DNA from: Sphaerodactylus townsendi
Taxonomy: Eukaryota
NCBI RefSeq assembly: GCF_021028975.2
Contig: NC_059433.1
Coordinates: forward strand, 41,540,001-41,604,000
Direction: 5' to 3'
DNA: 64,000 bases
Numbering within the stretch: position 1 is the stretch's first letter; each line of letters opens with the position of its first letter. The notes beneath the pieces are model-generated. The model searched no databases. It was not told the origin of the DNA and saw only the letters and a list, made by a program, of their open reading frames with translations. The position numbers and the translations under genes are program-made. Positions 1 to 63,695 of the stretch are shown here, piece by piece.

Positions 1-980
1 ACATTTGCACAACAACCATTGTGTAAAGTAGTAGTTCTTTTTGGATATTGAACCTACTTCCTACCATGAGATGTGGGGATAGCCACAGGCATACATGATT
101 TTTGAACGGGGTTGGACAAATTTATGGAAAATATGTATGTTGTAACCTGGAGATGTGAGGTTCTTTGAAGCTCACTAGGGGAGGGGGGTATTCCTTGGGT
201 CTCTGACAGCTGCTTGCATTCCCAAGAAAGAGAGACACAAAATCCACCAAGAGGTCAGAGAAACATAGAAGCATTTATGAAGAGATATAGATATTTGCTT
301 TGCCTGCCAAGAAGGGCAAGATGGACAGCTGTTGTAAAACATAATATGGTTACTGAGAAGTGTGGAACACATGCCTTGGACTGACTGGGAGGTCTTCTAA
401 TAGTTCCCTAACTCCTAATCTGCAGGTGAGGTTTAACTTCTCAAACAGGGTCTTTCCCCAATCAAACCAGCTCCTTTGAGTTGCTTTTAGCTCACACATG
501 GGAGAAAAGACTTTGATTGGAGAAACAGTGCAAGGTGCAAGGGAAGAGGTTCAGCACCTTCCATACTGATGGCCCACCATAGCTGCTTTTAAATACTAAA
601 TTAACCACCGGGGGATCCAATCACAGATCTTCAATGTAACATATAATTTGTCCCTTATTCTGAACAATGAAATGCTTACTTCAGGGGCAGGCAATCTGCC
701 AGCTCATATCTAACAGTAGAATGTTATCCCGAGACAGACTCAAAAATGAGCAGAGAGCTAACCTTGGTTTAAATAAAATATTGACAGTAACCTCCCAAAT
801 CATTGGGGTTTTTTTTTTACTGCCATGAAATTAACCAATTTTTACTCCAGAGACATCAAAATATGGGGGACACTAAACTTTATAGTGGTGCTGGCATGAA
901 TTCTAAAAATTCAGATGAAGAGTTCTATTTGAAGCAGCCATAAGAGGAGAGAATATTAAGTGATGAAGAACGAACTTACC

Positions 981-1723
981 CCGATTTCTAGACATTGGTA
1001 ATACTGAAAAATTAATAGACAGTTGGAAAGATATAAAGATTGAGAAATATATGGAGTTAGAAAGAAAAGTGATATTAAAATGGTATAGAACACCAAAACA
1101 ACTAGCATATATGATAAAAGGACTTAGTTCTAAATGCTGGCACTGTGGAGACCAAGAGGCATATTATAGCCATATGTGGATAGAATGTGCAGAAGTGAAA
1201 AATTTTTGGACAACTGTATTAATATATATCGAGAAACTGGTGAAGATAAATATTGATTTAAATAATGACTTAATGTTCATGGATGTAATGGAAGACAGAA
1301 GGGTGGATAAACAATATAGCTATGTGTATAAAATAATGATTAAAGCAGTCCATGCAACAATAGCCTTGGGCTGGAAAAAAAAGAAAAAATGGACATTTCA
1401 GAAATGGTTAGAATATAACTGGGAACAAGTGACACTTGATATTTTCGATATACTAACCAAAAATAAGACTTGGCAAGATAAACAGAATGAAATTTGGAAG
1501 ATATGGATAATATACGTGGACTGAATGAAAGAAGCTCGAGCCAATGAAGAAATATGGGAGAAGAGGCTACAGAGAATGAACTTACTGCTGTTTGTGTGAC
1601 AAAACTATGAAGAAGTAATAGGGGGAGGGAGAAAAGGGGGGGAAAGTATTGTTTGAAAATGTATGAAGAAGGAAATTACTATAAACTGTATAATTCAAAT
1701 GATACAATTAATTTTTTTTTAAA
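981..1723 (+). mobile_element. 5'-truncated L1-clade LINE (ORF2 C-terminus plus 3' UTR) with 15-bp TSD AAGAACGAACTTACC (966-980 and 1724-1738)
   Basis: Frame open from 982 with a CCHC knuckle (CWHCGDQEAYYSHMWIEC), one in-frame TGA at 1522 and a terminal stop at 1597-1599; G-rich 3' UTR; exact flanking direct repeat. Confidence 0.85.
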
Positions 1724-1737
1724 AAGAACGAACTTAC

Positions 1738-1837
1738 CGACACAATCACAGCATTCATCCCAAAGCATGCCTAGACAAAGCATGCACTCCTTACAACATG
1801 AACAGTTTCCTTCACCTGGTCGGCACTGACATAGCTC
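1738..1837 (-). CDS. TWSG1: TWSG1 second coding exon, 100 nt
   Basis: ttctag|GAG CTA TGT CAG ... GTC G|gtaagt; [18 protein letters not shown]. Confidence 0.96.
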
Positions 1838-4800
1838 CTAGAAGCACATCATAGCATGTTAAAATTTCCTATGTGTAAGATACTAATCAAGATGAACATT
1901 TTAAAATCCAATTAACTAGCAATTTCAATTCTTGATCAATAAAGACTGGTCTTGCACAGAAGTCCCAAATAGTAATTAATGCTGAGCAGGTGCATACATT
2001 CTTACACTTCAAAATGAAAGTTGTCTCCCCCAGGAGTCATAATTTGATTCACAAACTATGTAGTTGAGCACAGCCACATAAAGGCATCCATCTAAATGTA
2101 AGCCTGAGTAATGAATTGTGGATCATATTTCTCCCCAACCCAAATTAAATCAGGATACTGCTGGTTCCTATACTATACTACATGATAGCCAGAAAGGGAT
2201 AAATAGCAGTAAAAGGGATTTAACATTTGTATCTTTCAATGTCTATGCAAAAGGTAAAACATGAATCAATTTTCCAAATGTAATCAGAAATATGGCTTTA
2301 AGGTATTGGAGACATCTGAAAACCTTTGTTCTCATCACAATTTAATGTGTGAAGAGTGAGAGCAGAAAATTTATTTTTGTAAATGTTAATGGTTTTTAAA
2401 AACTTTGCAGCACATTTGTGTATAAAATTTTAAACACTCAGTCGTAAAATATTCTTTACAAATATCACAGTACTTTATCAACAGAATTTTTATAACCAAT
2501 ATACAAATTACCAAGAAATTACAACTTTACTGCAAACAGCCTTTAACTTGGAATGATATGCTTTGGTTCAAGTATAACAAATGTGAAACGGTCAAATTTA
2601 TATTTCATAATTTTAACAGCCTGAGTTCTTAGGAGAAAGATATAACTTAAGGTTGCAACAGAGGCGTAGCTGCCCCCCCAGGTGTGCACCCTCTGGCCCC
2701 CCCGCCTCTGGGTTATAATGACTAACAAGGTTCACAGTGGAATGATAACCTGTTCTTACTTTCTTAAATAAAAAAATAAAGGATTGTATATAATAGGGCT
2801 GCAGTTGTTAGTTGTACTGAGATAGGAGGGAACTGTGTCTGTGTGATGGCTAAGCTTGATTCTTGCCTCAACAATATTCCCGCTGAGGGCAACGAGAGTC
2901 ATGCATGGCAGAAAATAAAGGAATGCAATTGAGGACCTCTTTGCATCAGAGTTTCATCTCTTTGCATCAGAGGACAAAGATAAATTTTGTCCCTACTTCA
3001 GTTATATTCCCAACTGCAATCTGGGAATTAGTGCACCGTTAACTTTATACCCATCAGGATACCTTATTTCATCCATGCCACAGTGGTCTTCTAGTACATG
3101 CATCCAGAAAGAAGAGGGGGTTGTGCCACTATATTTAACTCACTGATTCTGACCCGCACAGTAATACATTTAGTTGGGGGAAACACACACACACTGGTGG
3201 AATTACAAGGCTACTCATTTTAACCTGCAAATGTTGCATTACTCAGTGAATACACAAAGTGGGAGGAACAGAGAACACAGTAATCAAACAGACAGAAACT
3301 GCACCTAAATTTTAAAGTCAAAATACTGCATGTTAACAAAACAATAGTAATGAACTAAAAATAACTCCAAACATAAAGAAGTGTGACCGGTGATAGCTGT
3401 GCCTAAAAAGCTAACATCCAAATAATCTACTAAATGACAAGGTGAGGGGACAGCTCCCTCCCATTGCAAATTCTCACACTGCTCAAAGCAACAGTGAGGT
3501 AATCAAAGCATACCAAAGCGTCAAAAGTGCTCACAATTTGAATCAAAAGCAACTGGATAACATTGGATAACATTGTGAAAACTCATAAACATAACAAAGA
3601 TCAAACAGTTCATTACTATTGTTTTGTTAACATGCAATCTTTTGCCTTTAAAATTTAAGTAGTTTCTGTCTGATTACTACACTGAATTACTGCCTAAGGA
3701 GTAAATTTCACAATACTCTGTGAGATTTAATTCTCAGCAAACATGGAAAACTCTGAGCAGTGTACCTCGCAAATACTGTACCCACCAAGAAGTTATGACA
3801 AATAATTGCTTACATTTCTCAAAGGATGATGGAAAAGGAAAAATGAGAGAATAGCCACATGTCCATGAAGAGATTATGATTTAGGAAATATTATTTTTGA
3901 CGGTACACTGCTAAGTGAATTTGTGTTGGTTCATATACAATACTATGAACTTTTTTCCCCAGCAGGAAAACTAAACTCTGTTGCATCAGCTGTTACTGCT
4001 GTGAAATAGTCACTTATTGCTGTCTGCGTTTAAAATGATAGATTGTCCACAATCTATATGTTACAGTTTGGGTTTTACCACTTGCAGCACTAAGCATACA
4101 TGCAGATTGCCAAGAACTTTATGGAACTCAAAGATCTCAGGAAAGGTGACATGACAAGCAGGCGACATGACCTATCCAGCAAGACAGCACAAGTGAAGTT
4201 TGTCACAAGACATTTAACTGTAGATCTCACTCACATCTGCTACAGAGCTGCTAAAATAAATATTTACACCTTTCTGCATTCTGTCAGGAAAAGCACAATG
4301 CATGCAAACCCTTACATCTATATGGGTAAAAACAAAATCTAATCAAACATGTCTCACTAAACTTACATTTTTCTAGCTGTTTACTACTGTATTGATCTTT
4401 AAATAAATGTATCACTCATGATCTATAGGGAGTTAGTTATCCTTAAGTACCACTTAAACTAGTGGACAAGTTAATCATGACTAAAGTTATGTTTCATCAG
4501 TTTCATGAAGACTTGAGCCCAGTAAGTGTATCTAACATTTCGTAAGTATAATTTTGTTATGCAGCATTCCTGTGTCCAGTACCAAAGTTAAATATACACA
4601 AGCATGGATTGTCACACATTACATCTACGTTATTTGTGAGAGCTCTTGCAGTTTAAGAACAGATTATTGTCGGTCCGCCCAATCAACAGCCCAAGGTGCC
4701 AGGGACATGCACCACTGTTACGCCACCCTTCCACTGGCATGGGAAGGCAGAAAAAAAACTGCTGCCACCAGAAAGTCCTCCATAGGGCTAAATTATGCCA

Positions 4801-7800
4801 CCTAAAAGGGTGGCATAAGTCTGAGCTTTGGACTGTGGCATATCTGGCAGAAAAGCCAGGCTGGATGCCAGTGTAGCTCCACAGTGCCCCCAACTTCTGG
4901 GTCCTGCCACTCCGGAGCTGAAGGGTAACCAGCCACTGGTGCCTTTGCCCCTTCACTGGTGGGAATGCCCCATGCACAGATAAAGGGGGCAAATAGTGCA
5001 ACTCTACACTGGCCCTATGACTCAATTTGTCCTCCCATAGGATTGCACTGTCAGTGTCTTAATTAACTGATTATCATCTCAGAAGCATCTCAGTATTCTG
5101 CTCCGAATTTAATGGGATTCTATTGCATTTTGAAAAGACATTTTGAAGCGTATTGCTATCAATGTGTCCTCAGCAACTTCCTCTTACTTAAGAAAAGTAC
5201 AGAAAATTACAATAGTGAACTAAAATCTTTATATGTAAAAAGGAAAAGGAAGGTTGAAAATCATTAACTGAAGAATGTTTCATATACCTGTATCCAGTGT
5301 GGTTCTGTAAGGGTTAACATTAGTAGCAGATCAAGGTGTGGGGCAAATTTTGGTTTAGTCACATAGAAAATGGGCAAAGAACCCAAATTAAACTATAACA
5401 GGTTCATGCTGGTAAGATGCCAAACCTTTTTCCCACCTGTGATTTACTTCCCTGCAAAACTCTCTGCTGTGATTTTTCCCACTCAAGCTTGATACAGGAA
5501 GTGAACCCTGGGGACAGATTGCAAAGGGATAAGTCATCTGCAGAGAGCAATCAGTCCTGCTTTGCACTTCTGTCTTTAAATTGGTCTCCTCCACCCAACC
5601 TTTCTATGTGATTGCGGCAGATCTGGGTTTAAACACACAGGTCGACTGTGACTCAACACAAAGCGTATCTAGGCATGCTTATGAATTTACTGAACTTCTG
5701 TATTAGTATTCAAGTTCCTCAGCAGAATTACACCCTTCTAAGGCCACTGGGTGTGTGATGACACTCTGTCCAGAAGAAACTTCATTACTGACAACAACGT
5801 TTCAGTAAAAATACAGAAGCAACTACAGCTCTCCTTTCTCTGATCCACAGGTGACTGATGCCACAAATCAGAATTAAAATGATGTTTTCTGCTATAAACC
5901 CGACAAGTTTATATATAAAGTTGGTTTACATGGAAACGTGTGAAATTGTTAGAATTGCTTTCTAATCCTATAATAAAGAAAAACAAATGTGTCACAAACA
6001 GGAGAATTTTGCTTTTACTCCTCAGCATCACAAATGAAATCTTGAAGATTCTCAGCCTCTCAAGTTGGTTAATGACCTTAAATCCTGCTCAAAACTAGAG
6101 GTGTACAGACATGTTTATAGTGGAATGGAGAGAGAGAAAAATGAGAATAAGCAGGACTGAAAGAACAGTAATTAAATTATGGTAATAATGCTTAGCAAAC
6201 TTGGCATGGGCCTGAGAATAGCAGGGCTTAGTCAGGCTGCTGGTACTCCACTGGGAACAGAGCAGTATGATGTTGAAGCCAAATTAAGTAAATGCCTCTT
6301 GCCTTTAATCAGACCCCTGTGGGCAGTCTGTGTGCCAAAACAAAAGCCTTCAAGACAGAGACGTGAAGGATTAGAGGGAAAAAATGGAAAGGGGGGGGGG
6401 GGAATCACAGACTATTTTTACTTTTTTTTCTTTTGGAAACATTGGGAATGTTGGGGGAAACTGAAAAAAAATTCTCAAGAAAAAGGTTCCTTTTAAAACA
6501 TGAGTGAAGCACTTTTTAAGTAGGTTTTTTAATATTTTACTTGCTTTTTACTCTCTCAAAACTTTTTCTAATAACTACATTAGACAAGTCCCTACGTCCT
6601 GCAGACATGGAGAGCTTTCAAACTTATCTTCTTCAGCATGTGAAAGAAGCTGGTCCATGACAGAAAAAGTGCACAAGATTAGAGAAGAACAGATGCCCAT
6701 CAGAAACTTATTCTGATGGAAAGAAATTTGAACATAGAATTTTGAAGGATATTATAGGACAGTGGTGGCAAACCTTTGGCACTCCAGATGTTATGGACTA
6801 CAACTCCCATCAGCCCTTGCCAGCATGGCCAATTGGCCATACTGGCAGGGGCTGACGGGAGTTGTAGTCCATAACATCTGGAGTGCCAAAGGTTCGCCAC
6901 CATGGTTATAGGATATAGAGTGAAAATATGTTAACCAACATGGTTGGGGAACTGGGACGGCTGGTGAACTGCCTGCTCCTCTATAGCCTGAGGCCAGGCT
7001 GAGGCGGAAATTGTCTTGATGGTCTCCTGGCTGTGGGAATCACCTTAGGTAGCAGCAGCTGAACTAGGCAGCATTAGGGATCATTTCCATGGCTAGTATG
7101 CCCAGCCCCAATAATGGCAAACGTGTGTGTGGCAGGGTTGCACAGCTCACCAGCAGTATTGGAGGGGGGGAGGGGGGTTGCATGACACATGTTCCAACTA
7201 TGGCCAGAATGCACCTCCCATGTCTCTCCATCCAAATGCCTCCTCCCACACTGTCACACAGCTGCGTGGTGGGCCATCATTCATTCATTCATTCATTCAT
7301 TCATTCATTCATTCATTCATTCATTCATTCATTCATTCATTCATTCATTCATTCATTCATTCATTCTGCCCACCCCTGAAGGGCTCTGGGCGGTGTACAG
7401 AAAATAAAACTTAAAACCTCAAATCACACAATTAAAACCAAGTTAATTAAATACAAAACAACAAACCAGAAAATCCTAACTTCAGATGGCGACTCAAGGA
7501 GACCTCCTATCCCCCAGGGAGAAGATCGGCACAGCACAAGCAGCTGGTGTGATGGTATGTGGGAGCAGGATGCATTCTGGCCCTTTAAATCCTTGCCCAC
7601 CACACTGTCTATCTGTGGTCTGACCCCTTAAATTCCTGCCCACCACACTCCACTGTGGTGTGCTGACCCATCAGAGCATGCACTATACCCTGTTCCACAT
7701 AAAGACCCAAGTAAAACTGTAACTTCATCCACCATTTCCTCCTGCCCCCCTCTCAACATGCTCTACACCCCCCACTCGTCGCAGCCTGGTCTGGATTAGA

Positions 7801-10361
7801 TGGCGAGTGGGGTGCATGGAGCATGTGGAGTGGGGGTCACGAGGAAATGGTGGATGAAGTTACTATTTTACTTATGTCTTTATGTGGAACAGGGTATAGT
7901 GGCCAGTGTGCCAGTTAACTGGGCTTGTACTGAATTATTTAAATAGCATGCTGAAGAGTTTCATGTGGCTAATTGGATCTTAGTATAACACTTAATATGT
8001 TAAATTAAGATAAATGATCAATATCATGTATTTTCCAGTCTATGGAAGGCGAATCATGCCCCGTACAGCAGTGATTCAGATTAAGCTCACAGAAGAACAG
8101 GAGAGGTGATGCAGTTCTTCAACTCTCATTTTAAGTAATTAAAGAAGTTGGGTGCTGTGTGGTTTCCGGGCTGTATGGCCGTGTTCTAGAAGCATTCTCT
8201 CCTGACGTTTCGCCTGCATCTGTGGCTGGCATCTTCAGAGGATCCTCTGAAGATGCCAGCCACAGATGCAGGCGAAACGTCAGGAGAGAATGCTGCTAGA
8301 ACACGGCCATACAGCCCGGAAACCACACAGCACCCCAGTGATTCCGGCCGTGGAAGCCTTCGACAATAAATTAAAGCAAGGTTCAAAATGTCCAGAAATC
8401 GTAACTCTCTTCTTGGAATATTCCTAAGATATCAAATTCTAGATATTCTAATTATTCTTATATCTAAATACCTGTATGTTGCACGAGAACAATTTGCAAT
8501 GCAATAATACATATAGAACTGTATGTTTGAAGGTTGTGAAGAACTACAAAACAGAAGGCAAAAAGACTTTGGGCTTCATCTGTGAGCTCTTACTGGGAAG
8601 CAAATCATGTTAAAAACCTGGTGGGGCTGTTTAACATAGTGGACTTTAGGCAGGAGATGGCTTCATATTGCCCGAGGAGCCCCTTCCTCCTGGCGCCATC
8701 AAGGAATACTTAAAGCAAATTAGTTTCCCAAGTCATGACTCCCAAACTGAGGCTGCATTTAAACAACGGCCACGAAAATCTATCCATGAAGCAGAAATGT
8801 TGCTGAATCACTGAAGTTCCAAGTCATTCTTAGTAAGATCGCTAGAATCTCTCCATACTAGTATCTCCCCACACTTAGTAAGATTATTAATATCTCCCAC
8901 ACTTGGCAGTCTTCAAGCAGGAACTAGACTCACATTTGCCAGGGATGCTTTAGGCTGATCCTGCATTCAGCAGGGGGTTAGACCAGATGGCCTGTATGGC
9001 CCCTTCTAGCTCTATGATTCTATGATTCACACTCTCCACCATTATGAGACACAATTATGGCTCCATTATCAGGATGGAAACTGATGTCCTCTTATTATTT
9101 TTCTTGTATGTGTTTTCAACAAGAACAAGCTAAACAAGTTTTCCTAGTTTAGCTTCTATATCTACTTGCATATAAACACAGGTACAGGCTCCAGTCAACA
9201 TATTCTCACACACAACAGTGTACTTTGTGCTGACTGTTTTGTACAAGGGTTTCTTTTACCCACCTCTCACCATTGTATTACATGGATGATGTTTCCAGCT
9301 TCACTGTCCAGTGATGAAGGGAAATGATGGTGCCTGTTTTCAGGCCCCCCCCCCCCCCACACCTTTCAGGGTTAATTATATGCCTAATCTTCAATACTGA
9401 CTACTTCATCTCCAAGTGAGCAGAATATTTCAAGAATTTCAGTTATATCCCTCTTCCCACAAACATTTATACTTTTATGCCAGAAATCTAGAGACAAGGT
9501 GACCATTGTTTAAGAGAGCAAAACATGCCTCCAATTAAAGCTGATAATATATCAGTGATGTCCTGAAATATTTTTCCAAGAGCAAGCCCCATACAGTAGA
9601 TTTTAATAGGATTCCAGGTAAACCCTATATCTATGTCCACTCTCTATGTTAGTGATTCCCAACCAGGGTTCCGTGGTACCCTGGGGTGCCGTGTGCATGT
9701 CCCAGGGGTACCGCAGCAATGCTACCGGCCAACCTCACTTTTGTGATGTCTCCCGCCAGCACCAGCAAGGATATGGATTTGGCCTAGGGGGCAGGGTCTG
9801 CCCTAAGGTCAGCAGCTACTTCCCACCCACCCCACACGCTTCCCTTCACCCTGGGAGGGGAAGGTGGAAGGTGGCAAGCAGGGGAACTGGGAGGGGAAGG
9901 TGGGGGGAGGATGGCAGGGGTACCATGAGATATGAAGAGTGAGGTCAAGGGTACCGTGATGTCGAAAAGGTTGGAAAACATTGGTCTATGTCTTACAAGT
10001 ATCTTATTAACCTTATTTGTTATAAGATGCAGAAAATGCTTATGAATTAAAAGTCACACACTGATGTGCTTTAAAAGAAAGATATAAACAAAGGTTCCCG
10101 GGGTTTTTAAATGTATAACCTATGCAAAATCCTGGTTTCAGCTTCACTGTTTATTCACAAAAACAAAAGCCAAACTCTTGGCCCTGATTTTCCTATTGGT
10201 TAATCACTCACACAAACAGCAAGGAAGGTTTCTCATACCTGTATTAAGCATTTACTGACATCACTGGCACACAGAGCCTTGTTGCAGCACATTGATGGTT
10301 GGACTGAGAAAAACAACATCACGCTAACTAATGCTGGTATAGTGCTGTACCACAACTTCAT
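1738..10361 (-). CDS. TWSG1: Twisted gastrulation BMP signalling modulator 1, 3'-partial; coding exons 10239-10361 and 1738-1837
   Basis: [41 protein letters not shown]|[33 protein letters not shown]: signal peptide plus the Tsg Cys-rich domain; canonical splice sites; lies downstream of ANKRD12 as in mammals. Confidence 0.96.
3236..3693. mobile_element. MITE-like element with long imperfect inverted termini
   Basis: 3280-3356 (gtaatcaaacagacagaaact...aatagtaatgaact) is the approximate reverse complement of 3607-3677. Confidence 0.5.
6760..6905. mobile_element. Palindromic non-autonomous hAT MITE, 8-bp TSD TTATAGGA
   Basis: CAGTGGTGGC... termini, 146-bp near-perfect hairpin, TSD at 6752-6759 and 6906-6913. 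Confidence 0.9.
7277..7365. repeat. (TTCA)n microsatellite, probably the tail of a minus-strand L2-type 3' end (7366 to about 7500)
   Basis: About 22 tandem TTCA units followed by gcccacccctgaagggctctgggcgg, similar to the L2 3' end at about 23390. Confidence 0.85.
7681..7901. mobile_element. About 220-bp palindromic MITE-like hairpin
   Basis: cactataccctgttccacataaagac ... gtctttatgtggaacagggtatagtg; the arms pair over roughly 95 bp. Confidence 0.7.
8148..8368. mobile_element. Penelope-like (PLE) pseudo-LTR inverted-repeat insertion, copy 1
   Basis: Near-perfect palindrome centred on GGATCC (8240-8245), plus a 3' tail gtgattccggccgtggaagccttcgacaat shared with the copies at 15.0 and 55.9 kb. 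Confidence 0.8.
8243..8285 (+). ncRNA. Minimal type-I hammerhead ribozyme motif (mirror copy on the minus strand at 8200-8242)
   Basis: TCCT-CTGAAGA-T-GCC...GGC-GAAA-C-GTC-AGGA: stem I, CUGANGA box, stem II, GAAA box, minimal stem III and GUC cleavage triplet. Confidence 0.7.
8895..9028 (+). mobile_element. CR1 LINE 3' end fragment
   Basis: ...gcagggggttagaccagatggcc...ctatgattctatgattc terminal repeat. Confidence 0.75.
9650..9983. mobile_element. hAT (Charlie-type) MITE, TSD (c/g)TCTATGT
   Basis: Termini tagtgattcccaacc / ggttggaaaacattg; 7 of 8 TSD bases match (9642-9649 and 9984-9991). Confidence 0.75.
10239..10361 (-). CDS. TWSG1: TWSG1 first coding exon, 123 nt CDS (exon begins at about 10402 with 5' UTR)
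   Basis: ATG at 10361-10359; acceptor cttctctcag|TG at 10402; donor CAG|gtatga; [16 protein letters not shown]. Confidence 0.96.
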
Positions 10362-12899
10362 GTTCCTTGTGGACAGGAAATTCCTGGGACCTCCAGATGG
10401 CACTGAGAGAAGAAGCATTACATGGAGACAGAGGCAGAAGTTTAGATTCTTTCATCTGTAGCACATAGTTTTTATAGTTTTTGCTTCTGTGGATCTTCTA
10501 TCTTCAGCTGTATGTATGGCAAAAACAGAAGCCCTGGAATAGGTCAGCTTACTATTTTTCTGTAGACATTAAACCTACATAAAGCTTGACAATTTCAATT
10601 TTAATTAGGGTATCAGAGCATTCACTTGCATGAGAATTGGCAACAGCTAAGATAAATGCATTGTGATTAAATACAGTATTTTGATTGGTTAGCAATACAG
10701 ACAAAGCCAACAAGGAAGTTGTTGTAAAGATTAGTCTCTAATTATATAAATAAATGCAAACATGTTTTAACACAACCCCAAAGTGTTTCAACATCACCTG
10801 TCTAGATATATTCATTTAAACTTTTGAATAAGCTTTTGAACAAGGAACTGGATGGGTGTCATGTGTAGATGCACAGCATATTGAGATTTAATATTACAAT
10901 GCACCTTGCTGTGAATAGAATAATTTTATGAAGTCCATTTTCTGCATGTGCCAGTTATCCATTTGTACTGCATACTCAGTCCTATCACTCCTATTTTTGG
11001 CTCCAAAATCATACTGCCAAGTGACACAGTCTAAAAACAGCAGGGGGCTTACTTGTGACAGGCACCTGGAAAGTTTTTCCTTGACAACAAACCAATACCT
11101 TTTACAACTCCTATTTGCCACCTTCTGGATGTTGGCAACACTTCACTGGTCAAAACTATGTAGGATTTGGAGCTCACTGAAGAAATCTGGAAGGTTGAAA
11201 TGACCTATTCCTTTTGAGGCTCTCCCCACAGTTTTTAAGCCTAGCTTTTCTGAACCAAAGGAATTTTGCCTAAACCAAGAAGTGTCTCAAAGAGTGACAT
11301 CTGGATGCTTTAGAAGAATTTTATTCCTCATTGTGTTTATAATAATGTGTAATTCCTCAACAGCCCATTCCAGTTTCCAGCAATCTAATGTGTTGGGAAA
11401 TGAAGAGAATGTACAGCATGATCATTTTTGCTATACTCTGTCTCACCAGAAGATCTCAGGAAATGCTGAATTATTTCCTGGATCCCCTTCCTTGTAGAAT
11501 GCTCCCATTGGGCCCTAGTGCCCCTCAGGCCCAAACACCAAGCCGGGCCAACCGCAGCGCAGCAAGTCTCCGCTTTCCTGCCGGGCCCGGCAACAGCTTC
11601 CCCATTTCCTCTCTCCTCCTGGCCCAAGCACCAAACTGTGGCCACCCCCCCTTCCCACAACTCATTCCACAGCCATATCTTGGCCACCTGCTCCCTCCCT
11701 CCCCGCCTTGCTCACCCACCACCTTGCTCTGCTGCCTCATTCTCATGCCACCTCGCTCTCTTGCTGCTTTGCTCTCCTGTTGCCCGCTAACTGGCTCTAT
11801 CACCTGCTCATAGTCCTTTGGGACTATTTTCTACAGTGGAAGCAAGCACTCCCACTGCACCACTAACAACTGCACTTTTATCTTTCTGTGCGACAGAGTG
11901 TAACAACCATTTCAAGCCAGTGCACTGTAGTGGTTGGACTAGGATCTGGCAGACCCCATTCTGCTAAGAAAGTTCACTGGGTGATTTGGGGTCCATCACA
12001 TAGTCTCAGGTGCAACCTACTTCAAAAGGTTGTTTTGTTGGGATAAGATGAAGGAAAGGAAAATAGTGTAAATACCTTTGGCAGAAAGGTGAGGTACAAA
12101 TGAAATAAAAACTAAAATAAAATAATGTTTGGATTTGAGAAATCCATTTGTACAGTTGGCTGTGATGCACAGCTTTCTTGCTGGTTTGCTGATCTGAACT
12201 CACCTCCTTAGAGGGGCTGAAAACTTTTCAGGATCTGGCACGAATACCCAGAAAATCTTCAGTGAAATATACCAAACGAGCAAGTTGCAATCAGAAAGGT
12301 CTCCTGAAAGTTTCTAATATTCATTTGAATCAGTGCTCCCAATTTTATAAGTAGGTGCTTCTTCAACATTAAAAACAACACTCCTGTGAACACTGTGTCT
12401 GTCCAAAAGTTATTTCTACAAATTTCACCCACAACAGATACGCAATTTTACTTTTCACTCACTTCATAGCAGCTCAGAATGAAAGCAACATGCTCCAGGG
12501 ACTTAAGTGAACATGTTAAAACTAGCAAATCCCACCTGAACGTTCACAACCCCACATCTTTGTCACGGATCCTTGGGCTGACAATCGGCCCTGGAAAATT
12601 TCTTGAGGATGTTGAAGCTTTTCCTCCAGGGAAAAGGCAGCTGTATCAGGCAAAAGGTATAAACCAGTGCCAAGAAAGACCAAAAAGGTTTCCCAGCCCG
12701 TGAAACCAGTAAGGCAAGTTTGGCGAGAGGATTTGCAGAAAAGCGGCGAAGGGTCTGCACTCATCCCCACGATTACGCCTAACATAAAGTACGCACTGAA
12801 AGATGGCCATTCCGGCATCAAAAGGTTTCTGTTCCAGACAAGAGGAAGGACCTCAAACAAAATCCCGTTCCCCCAAAATGCTGGAACAAGCCTATCAAA

Positions 12900-13550
12900 A
12901 CAATCGCTGGGTCTTTCCATCGCCCAGCACTTATCCCGTCCTCTTCCCCCGCGCCCCGCGCCTTGGGACTGCTCGCTCGTCCCCTCCTCCTGCGCTACAA
13001 AGGCCTGGACTACGCCAACTTTCCCACAGGCGGGCGCCCGCTTACTCTGCACCGGAGACAGCCCGGCCCCGGTTCTGGCTGGGGCGACGACGGGACCTCA
13101 GCAGCCCCTCCGCTCTGCTGCAGGGGGCGGGCGACCGACAGGCACCTTAAAGGCCCCCGCCTTGCGCGCAGCTCCGACTGGAGAGGTAGGCGGGAAAGAA
13201 ATGGTCAAATCGTCTCCTCCTTCCTGGCCTCATCTGCACCTCAAGGCGTCTGGAGGGCGCGCCTACGCGGCCTCTTTTCTTAGGCTCTCAGTGTGTGCAT
13301 GACTGACTCCTGTGTTTTAATATTTAGGGGCGGGAAAGTGGGGAGGAAGCGCCGAGGGAAAGGCCTGCCCACTCATTGACATCCACTCCCAAACTCCTGC
13401 TAACTTCGTCTGCGGCGGCTTGGAAGAGCACCTTTTGCCTCCATGGTAAAGGCGGGAAAGGGTGTCCTTTTCTTCTCCAGGAGAGATCTGCCCAGGACTT
13501 TGCCCGTTAGGGTGCAGGGGAATTGGGCCCCTGGGTCTCGCTCACCGTTA
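12900..13550 (-). promoter_or_regulatory. CpG island / TWSG1 promoter with probable non-coding exon 1 (donor GCAGA|gtaagc, exon ending at 13046)
   Basis: High GC and CpG density, GC boxes (ggggcggg at about 13327, gggggcggg at about 13123), 2.6 kb upstream of the first coding exon. Confidence 0.75.
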
Positions 13551-14585: not shown

Positions 14586-15010
14586 TGATTTTGCCCCACT
14601 GAAGAGAAGACACCTTCATGGTAAGTTCAACTTGTCTTTCTCCTTCAGTGGGGCTTCATCATCCAAGCTAGTCACAAAGTGTGGGTAATAAAAAACACTT
14701 ATCTATCACTTAAAAAGTAAGAGACAATCTCACCTCAGGCATCCTGGTCCAGCACCTGCTGTAGGACTCTTCTCCCAAATACGCTTCTGCAGACAGCTAC
14801 TGGTCAAGTCTATAATATCTTATGAATGTGGAAAAAGAAGATTATGTGGCTGCCTGGCAGATCTCCTCGACTGGTGCTCTGGATGCGAAGACCACTGAAG
14901 TCACAGCTGATCTTGTGGAGTGACACACCTTGGAATTTGCATGCCCTGAGCTTCGTAAAACATCTTTGTGCAGAGTTTTATCCATCGTGCTATGGAAGAT
15001 ATATTCCTTG

Positions 15011-15318
15011 GGGTGCTGTGTGGTTTCTGGGCTGTATGGCCGCATTCTCTCCTGACGTTTTGCCTGCATCTGTGGCTGGCATCTTCAGAGGATCTGATAG
15101 TAGGGAAGCAAGTGGAGTATATATACCTGTTGGAGTATCCAGGGTGGGGGAAACTCCAACAGGTATATATACTCCACTTGCTTTCCTACTATCAGATCCT
15201 CTGAAGGTGCCAGCCACAGATTCAGGTGAAACGTCAGGAGAGAATGCTGCTAGAACACAGCCATACAGCCCGGAAACCACACAGCACCCCAGTGATTCCG
15301 GCCATAAAAGCCTTCGAC
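15011..15318. mobile_element. PLE inverted-repeat insertion, copy 2 (longer arms, hammerhead cores mutated), inside the DIRS YR region
   Basis: Same family as 8148-8368; TSD aagatatatYccttg at 14996-15010 and 15319-15333. Confidence 0.8.
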
Positions 15319-16230
15319 AAGATATATCCCTTGTTCCAAAAGTGACAGAAAGCATCTGAATTCCTGAGTTCTTGCAAGGTAAAAGTTTAATGCTCTTCTA
15401 ATATCCAAAGTGTGCCACTCTTTTGGATGTCTGGGCTTTGGACAAAACAATGGAATTATTACTGGTTATCTTAGATTAAAACAGATTTAATTTTACTAAT
15501 AGGTGAGGGGTCTACCTGAAATACTATAGATCCTTCAGTAAAGATGAACAGTTTCTTCTTAGTTTAAAGAGCACCCAGTTCTTACACCCACTGAGTGATT
15601 GCCAGAAGAAAGGCAGCCTTCCAGGATAACTATGCAATGGCCACCTTCCCCAAAGGTTTCAAAGGGTCTTTTTTGTTAAGACTTTTAACACCTTACCCAA
15701 ACTCCAGGACTGAAATCTGTGTACTATAGGTGCAGCCATCTGAGTCGCCCCTTTAGAGGTCCAGTTTCTGGCTGGACCTCTAAAGCCATTTACCTAAGAT
15801 CGCAGCAAGGTCTTAAACCTGCCTTTTCAGTATGTTTGGTCAAAGACATAGAGTCCAGCCATCATACAAGAAACAGAATGTCCCTAATACTTGGTGATAG
15901 TGGCTCAACCCCTTTCTGTGTTGCTAAATACTGTCCAAGTAGATTCTCTAAGTGGAATCCCTTCTAGAATTTGACATGACTTCCACTATTCCTTGGTGCA
16001 ATCCCAGGCTATCTAAGTCTGTCCCCTCAATAACCAGATGTGGAGTTGAAGCCATGCTGGCTCCATGTGAGCTATCCAACCCTGCATCAGCAAATTGTTG
16101 AATACAGGAAGTGGCCATGGCTATTCTGCCAATAATCCCAACAGATCTGAAAACCATGGCTGCCTGGGCTGGTGAGGTACCACCAACATCAAATTGGCCC
16201 TCTGCTCTCTCACCTTCCTTAACACTTTCT

Positions 16231-17744: not shown

Positions 17745-18551
17745 TGTCAGAGCTTGTGTGTGTCCCCACACGTTTGTGGTCACTGGTTGACACAAGCCTT
17801 TGCTGTCATGTTGTTGGTCCTTACCAAAACGTGTTTCCTGGCTTGAGCTGCCAGGCAGAGATAGCAGGTTACAGCAGGGAGCTCAGTCCAGTCCGGGAGC
17901 CAGATTTTAGCATGACCAGTCAGAGGATCAGAATCCACAAGTCAGAGGAAGTGTTGCAGCAGCCATGAGCTTTGTTGTGTCCAGGTCGGGATATTCTGTG
18001 AACCTGCTTGATATAGAGCAGTGGTGGCGAACCTTTGGCACTCCAGATGTTATGGACTACAATTCCCATCAGCCTCTGCCAGCATGGTCAATTGGCCATG
18101 CTGGCAGGGGCTGATGGGAATTGTAGTCCATAACATCTGTAGTGCCAAAGGTCTGCCACCACGGATATAGAGGTTCTTCCAGCATGTTAGGATTCATCCT
18201 GTGAAGACTGTGCTTCTCACTGCTGCAGAAGGTGCCTTCTCTGAGCTAGCAGGTGCACGCTTCTTTGTTCAACATGCAACAACTCCCTCTTGTCTCTGCC
18301 TTTGCTGATATGTGGACTCAGGTGAGCTAGGTGCTTGAGTCTCTGCAGCTGGAGCGGGGCCGGATGCACGGCCTGCTTCTGCAGTCAGTTCTGGCTCTGA
18401 ATTTTGATCTGGCTGTTGTCCACCGCATAAAGCCTGGAGGTGCCCTGGCTGCTCCAAGCCCAGCCCTTGTTGGTTCCCAACTTGGTCTGGGCTTACTGGG
18501 CTCTGCTCATCCCCTGAAGACTCATCTCTCTCCAGGGGATGGGACATGACG
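17745..18551 (-). mobile_element. Probable solo LTR interrupting the DIRS RNase H region
   Basis: On the minus strand it begins (c)GTCATGTCC and ends TGACA, and breaks the DIRS frame between ...QHV and LHSE...; no TSD seen. Confidence 0.45.
18019..18164. mobile_element. Palindromic hAT MITE, copy 2 (family of 6760-6905), TSD ATATAGAG
   Basis: 146-bp hairpin; TSD at 18011-18018 and 18165-18172. Confidence 0.9.

Positions 18552-28721: not shown

Positions 28722-63695
<34,974 letters not shown>

Follow-up and report, generated by a model that had tools for sequence, protein, structure and literature searches.

When a retroelement lands beside a constitutive exon and its target-site duplication (TSD) takes in the splice donor, the gene is left with two donors, and the question is what splicing makes of the second one. 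This situation is found at the BMP modulator TWSG1 in the 64,000 nucleotides analysed here (the window, meaning the whole stretch), where a 5'-truncated, L1-type element lies antisense to the gene, 14 nt from a coding exon. The locus is an L1-type insertion at a splice site, a kind that is already known.

The TWSG1 exon and its duplicated donor

The exon beside the insertion encodes 33 codons, with 32/33 residues identical to human TWSG1 (PDB 8bwa residues 20-52, E 1.5e-15) and a match to Pfam Tsg_N at 2.5e-10. The preceding exon has TWSG1 of Gekko japonicus as its best named match (85% over 41 amino acids), which makes a gecko the most likely host. Exons of the Tsg N-terminal domain, conserved cysteines, Ile40 and canonical borders all place the gene as TWSG1. 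The next exon was not found in positions 1-965 and must therefore lie outside the window. The features of the exons and of the insertion are as follows:

1738-1837, minus strand: second coding exon of TWSG1, 100 nt, from residue 42 to residue 74 and ending on the first base of codon 75; part of the BMP-binding N-terminal domain (PDB 8bwa, Pfam Tsg_N, AG/GT borders)
10239-10361, minus strand: TWSG1 exon before this one, with a coding part of 41 codons from the signal peptide to Gln41, including Asp34 and Ile40 (Gekko japonicus TWSG1 best)
966-980, plus strand: TSD copy at the 5' end of the L1, whose minus strand carries the duplicate donor GGG/GTAAGTTC (slash at the exon border; GT 979-978); defined by the joint of 965 to 1724 with 15 shared letters
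981-982, plus strand: two bases at the 5' truncation junction, unlike the target (which differs after the right TSD) and unlike other family copies (seen as loose ends); likely untemplated
983-1599, plus strand: 3' end of an L1-type ORF2, zinc-knuckle region and C-terminus (E 1.9e-32 and 41-43% identity with an EN+RT protein from an Anolis cluster)
1600-1723, plus strand: L1 3' UTR, about 121-124 nt, with a G-rich purine tract (G5, G3, G7), then T9 and a short A tail (1721-1723)
1724-1738, plus strand: TSD copy at the 3' end of the L1, whose minus strand carries the authentic donor TCG/GTAAGTTC (GT 1737-1736); the same in the empty-site contig of run X5

The 15-mer is identical at 966-980 and 1724-1738 (spacing 758), and these two were its only matches in the whole 64-kb window with up to two mismatches allowed, against a chance mean of 0.09; none of 100 shuffled sequences held two matches. 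The repeat is not extendable on its inner (3') side, and on the other side three A precede the right copy. On the minus strand it reads G/GTAAGTTCGTTCTT, the final exon base and 14 intron bases of the 100-nt exon, and this reading, proposed in a first-pass annotation, is exact in both copies. The same annotation took the repeat for a TSD and named an orthologous empty site as the place to look. In a relative we found such a site with one 15-mer, in a contig that joins 965 to 1724, and the pair is therefore a true target-site duplication. Two further claims need adjusting. The L1 was said to have landed at the 5' splice site: the TSD does span the donor, but the element itself lies 14 nt inside the intron and the exon's own donor is intact. 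The second donor was called identical, which is correct from -1 to +14, whereas the two differ at -2/-3, where the duplicate has two extra G. These are bases 981-982, outside the L1-homologous part.

The geometry suggests an origin by target-primed reverse transcription (TPRT). The L1 endonuclease would have nicked the sense strand of the gene at TTCTT/CA (966/965), between intron positions +14 and +15, and the second cut would have fallen 15 nt away, one base into the exon. The exon would thus have retained its donor and the first 14 intron bases, a second donor arising 758 nt downstream. The consensus for the L1 endonuclease nick is TTTT/AA, and the context found here, TCTT/CA, agrees with it at 4/6 positions; degenerate sites of this quality are frequent (6.6 per kb). 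A donor-spanning TSD requires no special targeting. With nine qualifying nick positions per donor, the 150,000-200,000 donors of a genome and a size of ~1.6 Gb (run size serving as proxy), 0.8-3.4 of them are expected by chance, before selection, per 2,000-6,000 copies.

Some observations on the gene itself can be added. At codon 65 (about 1768-1766, minus strand) the window has Met, where human and Gekko japonicus have Ala and the three other lizards compared have Thr. The TWSG1 promoter is likely the CpG island (12501-13500) that lies upstream of the gene's first coding exon, and further CpG-rich patches lie at 35501-37000 and 39501-40000. An open frame of 1527 codons on the minus strand (41946-46526), a giant exon, resembles ANKRD12, which we take to be the upstream neighbour of TWSG1. 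The TWSG1 N-terminal domain, Cys26-Arg80 with seven disulfides, inhibits GDF5 signalling by itself (PMC11167000). A literature search for dosage sensitivity of TWSG1 showed nothing relevant among the 12 matches listed.

The inserted element in filled and empty alleles

Between the 15-mer copies lie 743 nt of a LINE that is antisense to TWSG1 and 5'-truncated, since other family copies continue upstream of 983-985, where they appear as loose ends in the runs. An exhaustive protein search with the ORF2 fragment gave 545 relatives (word-index protein searches with it had returned 0/29 and 0/133 related candidates). The best full-length relative, P0017, has 1242 amino acids, falls within a cluster of Anolis RT proteins and matches the insert with 41-43% identity at residues 1048-1216. 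It carries the domains Exo_endo_phos (APE endonuclease) and RVT_1 (RT), and aligns with human L1 ORF2p over 5-1189 (E 6e-138), compared with 1e-21 for R2. Within the insert zf-RVT scored E 0.054, below the cut-off; the C-terminal part of ORF2 alone lies in the window. The L1 identity and the antisense orientation, both claimed at first pass, are borne out by this homology. The alignments support the assignment to the L1-type LINEs, a term that here takes in L1 proper and the related Tx1 group, which they do not separate.

The copy differs from the rest of its family. At least 13 of about 740 positions differ from most family copies, and there is a stop at 1522-1524 that nearly all the others are without. 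The element ends (1712-1723) in T9 followed by 3-5 A in place of a long poly(A), which may be either the normal end of the family or a result of decay, and the insert holds no AATAAA on the element's own strand. Insert depth was ~1,700-6,200x the flank depth in three runs, a ratio that is not a copy number; such an excess in the thousands nevertheless marks the family as a high-copy repeat. No second copy of the element lies within the 64-kb window.

Four of nine runs were compared, X1 (organism A), X4 (organism B), X5 (organism C) and X8, leaving out X2, X3, X6, X7 and X9. Organisms A, B and C are thus represented by one informative run each, and fixation is beyond this sample; X1 is possibly the assembly's own sample, and A and B come from one study. 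In X5 a single contig of 1,827 nt joins 965 to 1724, skipping 758 nt, with 15 letters that fit both sides and with flank depth. This is cleanly an empty allele: it has a single 15-mer, and its exon is the same as in the filled allele. In X1 and X4 the flank contigs enter the insert from both sides and there is no joint, so that the insertion looks homozygous in two filled runs from two organisms. X8 is patchy and has no cover across either junction, and its lack of the private stop carries no weight. Divergence of the flanks from the window was 0.76% in B and 2.0% in C; the differences listed for the contig of B all lie outside 966-1012. Residual depth with the stop at 1522-1524 was 65 in X1, 28 in X4 and 0 in X5. 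A stop private to A and B and missing from the run of C fits a single insertion that has been decaying without constraint.

The simplest reading, with the polarity assumed, is that the element inserted once, in the common lineage of A and B after C had split off. Its reversal, in which the element would be ancestral and organism C would have lost it by recombination between the 15-mers (or the repeat would be something other than a TSD), is scarcely to be expected. It can call on the unresolved outgroup, X8 being without cover at the junction, on a number of differences from most family copies that is somewhat large if the insertion postdates a split of only 2%, and on the A tail of only 3-5 nt. 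However, after such a loss the 15-mers would still be a TSD, the source element may itself have departed from the family majority, and the precise excision of such elements is rare. The duplicated unit, moreover, is exon-donor sequence, and it flanks a truncated LINE at both ends. The locus is a real, ordinary L1 insertion, and probably a near-neutral one.

Splicing outcomes open to the two donors

Both donors have 7/9 consensus matches, the copied one being as good as the real one, which argues against a silent decoy. By a crude U1 duplex energy, biased in its ranking towards G-rich wobble sites, the copy reaches -10.3 and the real donor -9.3 kcal/mol (tied 4th against tied 8th of 767 GT sites). 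Local folding does not tell them apart (unpaired probability 0.004 vs 0.002). The copied donor could act by lengthening the exon or by closing a new internal exon, for which three acceptors inside the insert come into question:

980-1370, minus strand: candidate poison exon of 391 nt, predicted from an L1-encoded acceptor (AG 1372-1371) and the TSD donor
980-1142, minus strand: weaker candidate exon of 163 nt with an early stop (AG 1144-1143, 12/17 pyrimidines)
980-1003, minus strand: candidate frame-keeping microexon of 24 nt, predicted (AG 1005-1004, 12/17 pyrimidines, AG-free zone of 96 nt)

Both outcomes were raised at first pass, and the internal exons are predicted to be better candidates than exon extension. 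By a simple heuristic, acceptor, branch site and donor occur in order and at exon-like spacing in the 391-nt and the 24-nt candidates. Seven TWSG1 relatives were compared, of 14 found, and none has an insert like those predicted; as all come from other organisms, this carries no weight.

Extension would carry the exon to 980 and to 858 nt, far above the usual exon size, with a stop after 59 nt of added sequence (699 nt from the end) and a product that ends after 19 extra residues. The identity of the donors from -1 to +14 speaks for it, as do the 6-16 and CBS genes, in which duplicate donors downstream are used (PMC1557585). In human F7, however, identical downstream donors are silent and the upstream donor is used alone, even against copies strengthened to CV 91; only perfect sites competed, and with the distant copies alone the exon was increasingly skipped (PMC1557585). 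This preference for the upstream of identical donors makes extension the least likely route, and we give it next to no credence.

The 391-nt candidate is built from better parts. Its acceptor has 16/17 pyrimidines, a score that none of the 782 AG sites in 12 kb exceeds and that it shares in a tie, with a branch-like TCTAAC 38 nt upstream, an AG-free zone of 46 nt and the highest accessibility of the four acceptors scored in the local fold (0.175 vs 0-0.07). The intron between the real donor and acceptor 1370 would measure 367 nt. All donors between 1370 and 980 are weaker and none reaches 6/9, so that the TSD supplied the missing part of this exon. A stop lies 290 nt ahead of its 3' end, making it a predicted substrate of nonsense-mediated decay (NMD). 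A stringent acceptor-donor filter run on both strands of the 64 kb gave 6 acceptors, 16 donors and 2 pairs on the minus strand and 6, 20 and 0 on the plus strand. The 391-nt pair is thus one of two in 128 kb, which again argues against a silent decoy. (The other stringent pair, 16337-16214 on the minus strand, delimits 124 nt and is either a real exon or a decoy.) On these grounds acceptor 1370, or the weaker 1142, which has no branch-like site 18-45 nt upstream of its AG, could join the TSD donor at 980 in a 391-nt (or 163-nt) exon that is measurably included, carries a premature stop and through NMD lowers the dose of TWSG1. We consider this unlikely, if still a contender. The size limit of internal exons is about 300 nt, and 391 nt is long. 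The filter is also a poor predictor: both real TWSG1 exons fail it, and in its relaxed form it passes 11 minus-strand and 12 plus-strand pairs, ~1 per 5 kb, so that its scores indicate possibility and not use. As to precedent, an L1-embedded cryptic exon beside an exon is documented in NF1, where an L1 inside an intron led both to a cryptic exon of 130 bp and to skipping of the exon next to it (PMC3219598), but in mammals antisense L1 exons are mostly repressed (PMC6108849).

The 24-nt candidate would place eight extra residues after V74 and ahead of G75 (junction residues taken from relative P0002), in the stretch of the BMP-binding domain bounded by Cys73 and Cys77, and so give a new isoform. 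It keeps the frame and has no stop, its AG-free zone is long, branch-like motifs lie 31 and 54 nt upstream, the pair passes the relaxed filter, and the differences of organism B spare this part. Its pyrimidine tract, however, is moderate (37/782 AG sites score better), and relaxed pairs are frequent decoys. Microexons depend on dedicated enhancers, which would be needed here, and the UGC motif that those of the SRRM4 type need upstream does not occur in the 30 nt before the acceptor. Its chance of being used is slim indeed.

A different effect would not involve the duplicate donor at all. The first-pass description of the antisense L1 as pyrimidine-rich on the transcribed strand holds (64.5%, compared with 51% in intron 2 and 54% in 1-965), and the insert has CU-rich motifs at 2.0-3.7x their density in intron 2. 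The acceptor of the real exon is weak on the same score (10/17 pyrimidines), so that the exon could be sensitive to neighbouring repressors. An antisense L1 14 nt from the donor might then increase skipping of the 100-nt exon, with a frameshift, whatever the duplicate donor does. Mammalian data bear on this in two ways. MATR3 and PTBP1 bind young antisense L1 and repress L1-derived and cryptic exons, and in human and mouse young antisense L1 is nearly missing from the 500 nt around constitutive exons (PMC6108849), which implies that such insertions are usually harmful. If mammalian rules are assumed for geckos, the repression argues for a silent new exon, and the depletion for an insertion of a usually harmful type. 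In NF1, 18/18 insertions changed splicing and skipping was the main effect, but the cases were ascertained through disease and were mostly exonic or acceptor hits (PMC3219598). Here, by contrast, the donor and 14 intron bases are intact and the allele is present in two organisms, and we judge increased skipping very unlikely.

The reading that we prefer, at a probability of roughly 0.7, is that the exon splices normally from its own intact donor and that the copy is a decoy, silent or used at trace level. The upstream donor would be selected because the 100-nt exon is defined across its own length, and the pyrimidine-rich antisense L1 would likely recruit repressors. If some RNA did join the L1 acceptor at 1370 with the copied donor, it would carry a premature stop and be removed by NMD. 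The allele would in this way have persisted, near-neutral, in at least two closely related organisms. The more ambitious proposal is that one retrotransposition built a complete exon without later mutation, acceptor and branch site coming from antisense ORF2 and the donor via the TSD, and that this gecko lineage makes meaningful use of it, whether to tune the dose of TWSG1 as a poison exon or to make a BMP binder that is reduced to the N-terminal domain or longer by eight residues. We regard this as quite unlikely. Against a large effect stand the homozygous look of the two filled runs, the recruitment of repressors by L1 in mammals and the frequency of relaxed pseudo-exon pairs.

Two minor features of the insert may be noted. 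The antisense L1 has a donor-like GCA/GTAAGTTC of its own at 1586 (minus strand), which with a 14/17-pyrimidine acceptor at 1604 delimits a possible 19-nt decoy exon (1604-1586). Cryptic polyadenylation was considered and rejected, since the transcribed strand of the insert contains neither AATAAA nor ATTAAA.

Comparison with known systems and other repeats

In most respects the insertion resembles the 5'-truncated L1 copies made by TPRT in lizards and the de novo L1 and Alu insertions of NF1 (PMC3219598): a TSD in the range of 7-20 bp (15 here), the 3' end of ORF2 with the UTR, a putative nick site in a pyrimidine run, an empty allele in a relative and a position beside a splice site. It differs from the NF1 and lizard L1 insertions in its very short A tail after a T run and in that the splice site was duplicated, not destroyed (PMC3219598). 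In anoles truncated L1 copies often fix (PMC3787681).

A parallel in geometry is the canine merle SINE in PMEL, which also lies antisense where exon and intron meet (PMC7349775). Its TSD is likewise 15 bp long and holds a splice site, and a cryptic acceptor encoded by the element can exonise part of it. In merle, however, the acceptor was hit and parted from its branch point, with a proven splicing change and phenotype, whereas in TWSG1 the donor is copied, the exon side is intact and the case is made from sequence (PMC7349775). The F7 intron 7 minisatellite, like 6-16, CBS, lamin B2 and PDGF, also repeats the authentic donor exactly at a point further into the intron and is a direct model for competition, but those copies stand in tandem units of 37-100 bp near the exon, and the one in TWSG1 is single, 758 nt off and across an L1 with acceptors of its own (PMC1557585). 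Introners likewise co-opt a splice site from the TSD, which could pair with a site of the element; they are mostly DNA transposons in exons, spliced out as new introns, while the TWSG1 element is a retroelement within an intron that was already there, and a pairing of the two sites would make an exon (PMC11282704). Intron gain of the introner type does not apply, as the element is inside an existing intron and the exon is the same in filled and empty alleles. An explicit case of a retroelement TSD duplicating a donor was not found in the literature covered, a partial coverage that gives this little weight, and the NF1 tables may contain TSDs that span splice sites.

The locus offers a well-resolved case in which an L1 only 14 nt away from a constitutive exon has been tolerated, in a zone that young antisense L1 rarely holds in mammals (PMC6108849). 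If the copied donor were used, a BMP modulator would have gained an exon instantly through a TSD-supplied donor, and the case would mirror merle on the donor side. The filled and empty relatives, ~2% diverged, are a ready natural control. Taken by itself, the sequence leaves the view of TWSG1 and of L1 biology unchanged.

Several other repeats were seen in the window. Raised depth and loose ends at 300-380 in the compared runs mark the edge of another repeat. In TWSG1 intron 2 there is a MITE-like element (3286-3675) with inverted arms of 54-71 nt that are 90-93% complementary and ~250 nt apart. Two short palindromic families (8148-8371, 15008-15326 and 55922-56141; 6753-6911 and 18012-18170) have copies that match each other on both strands at 86-95% and are probably non-autonomous DNA transposons. 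A pair of 560-bp repeats (30806-31362 and 59455-59987) shares 85% identity and shows internal inverted similarity.
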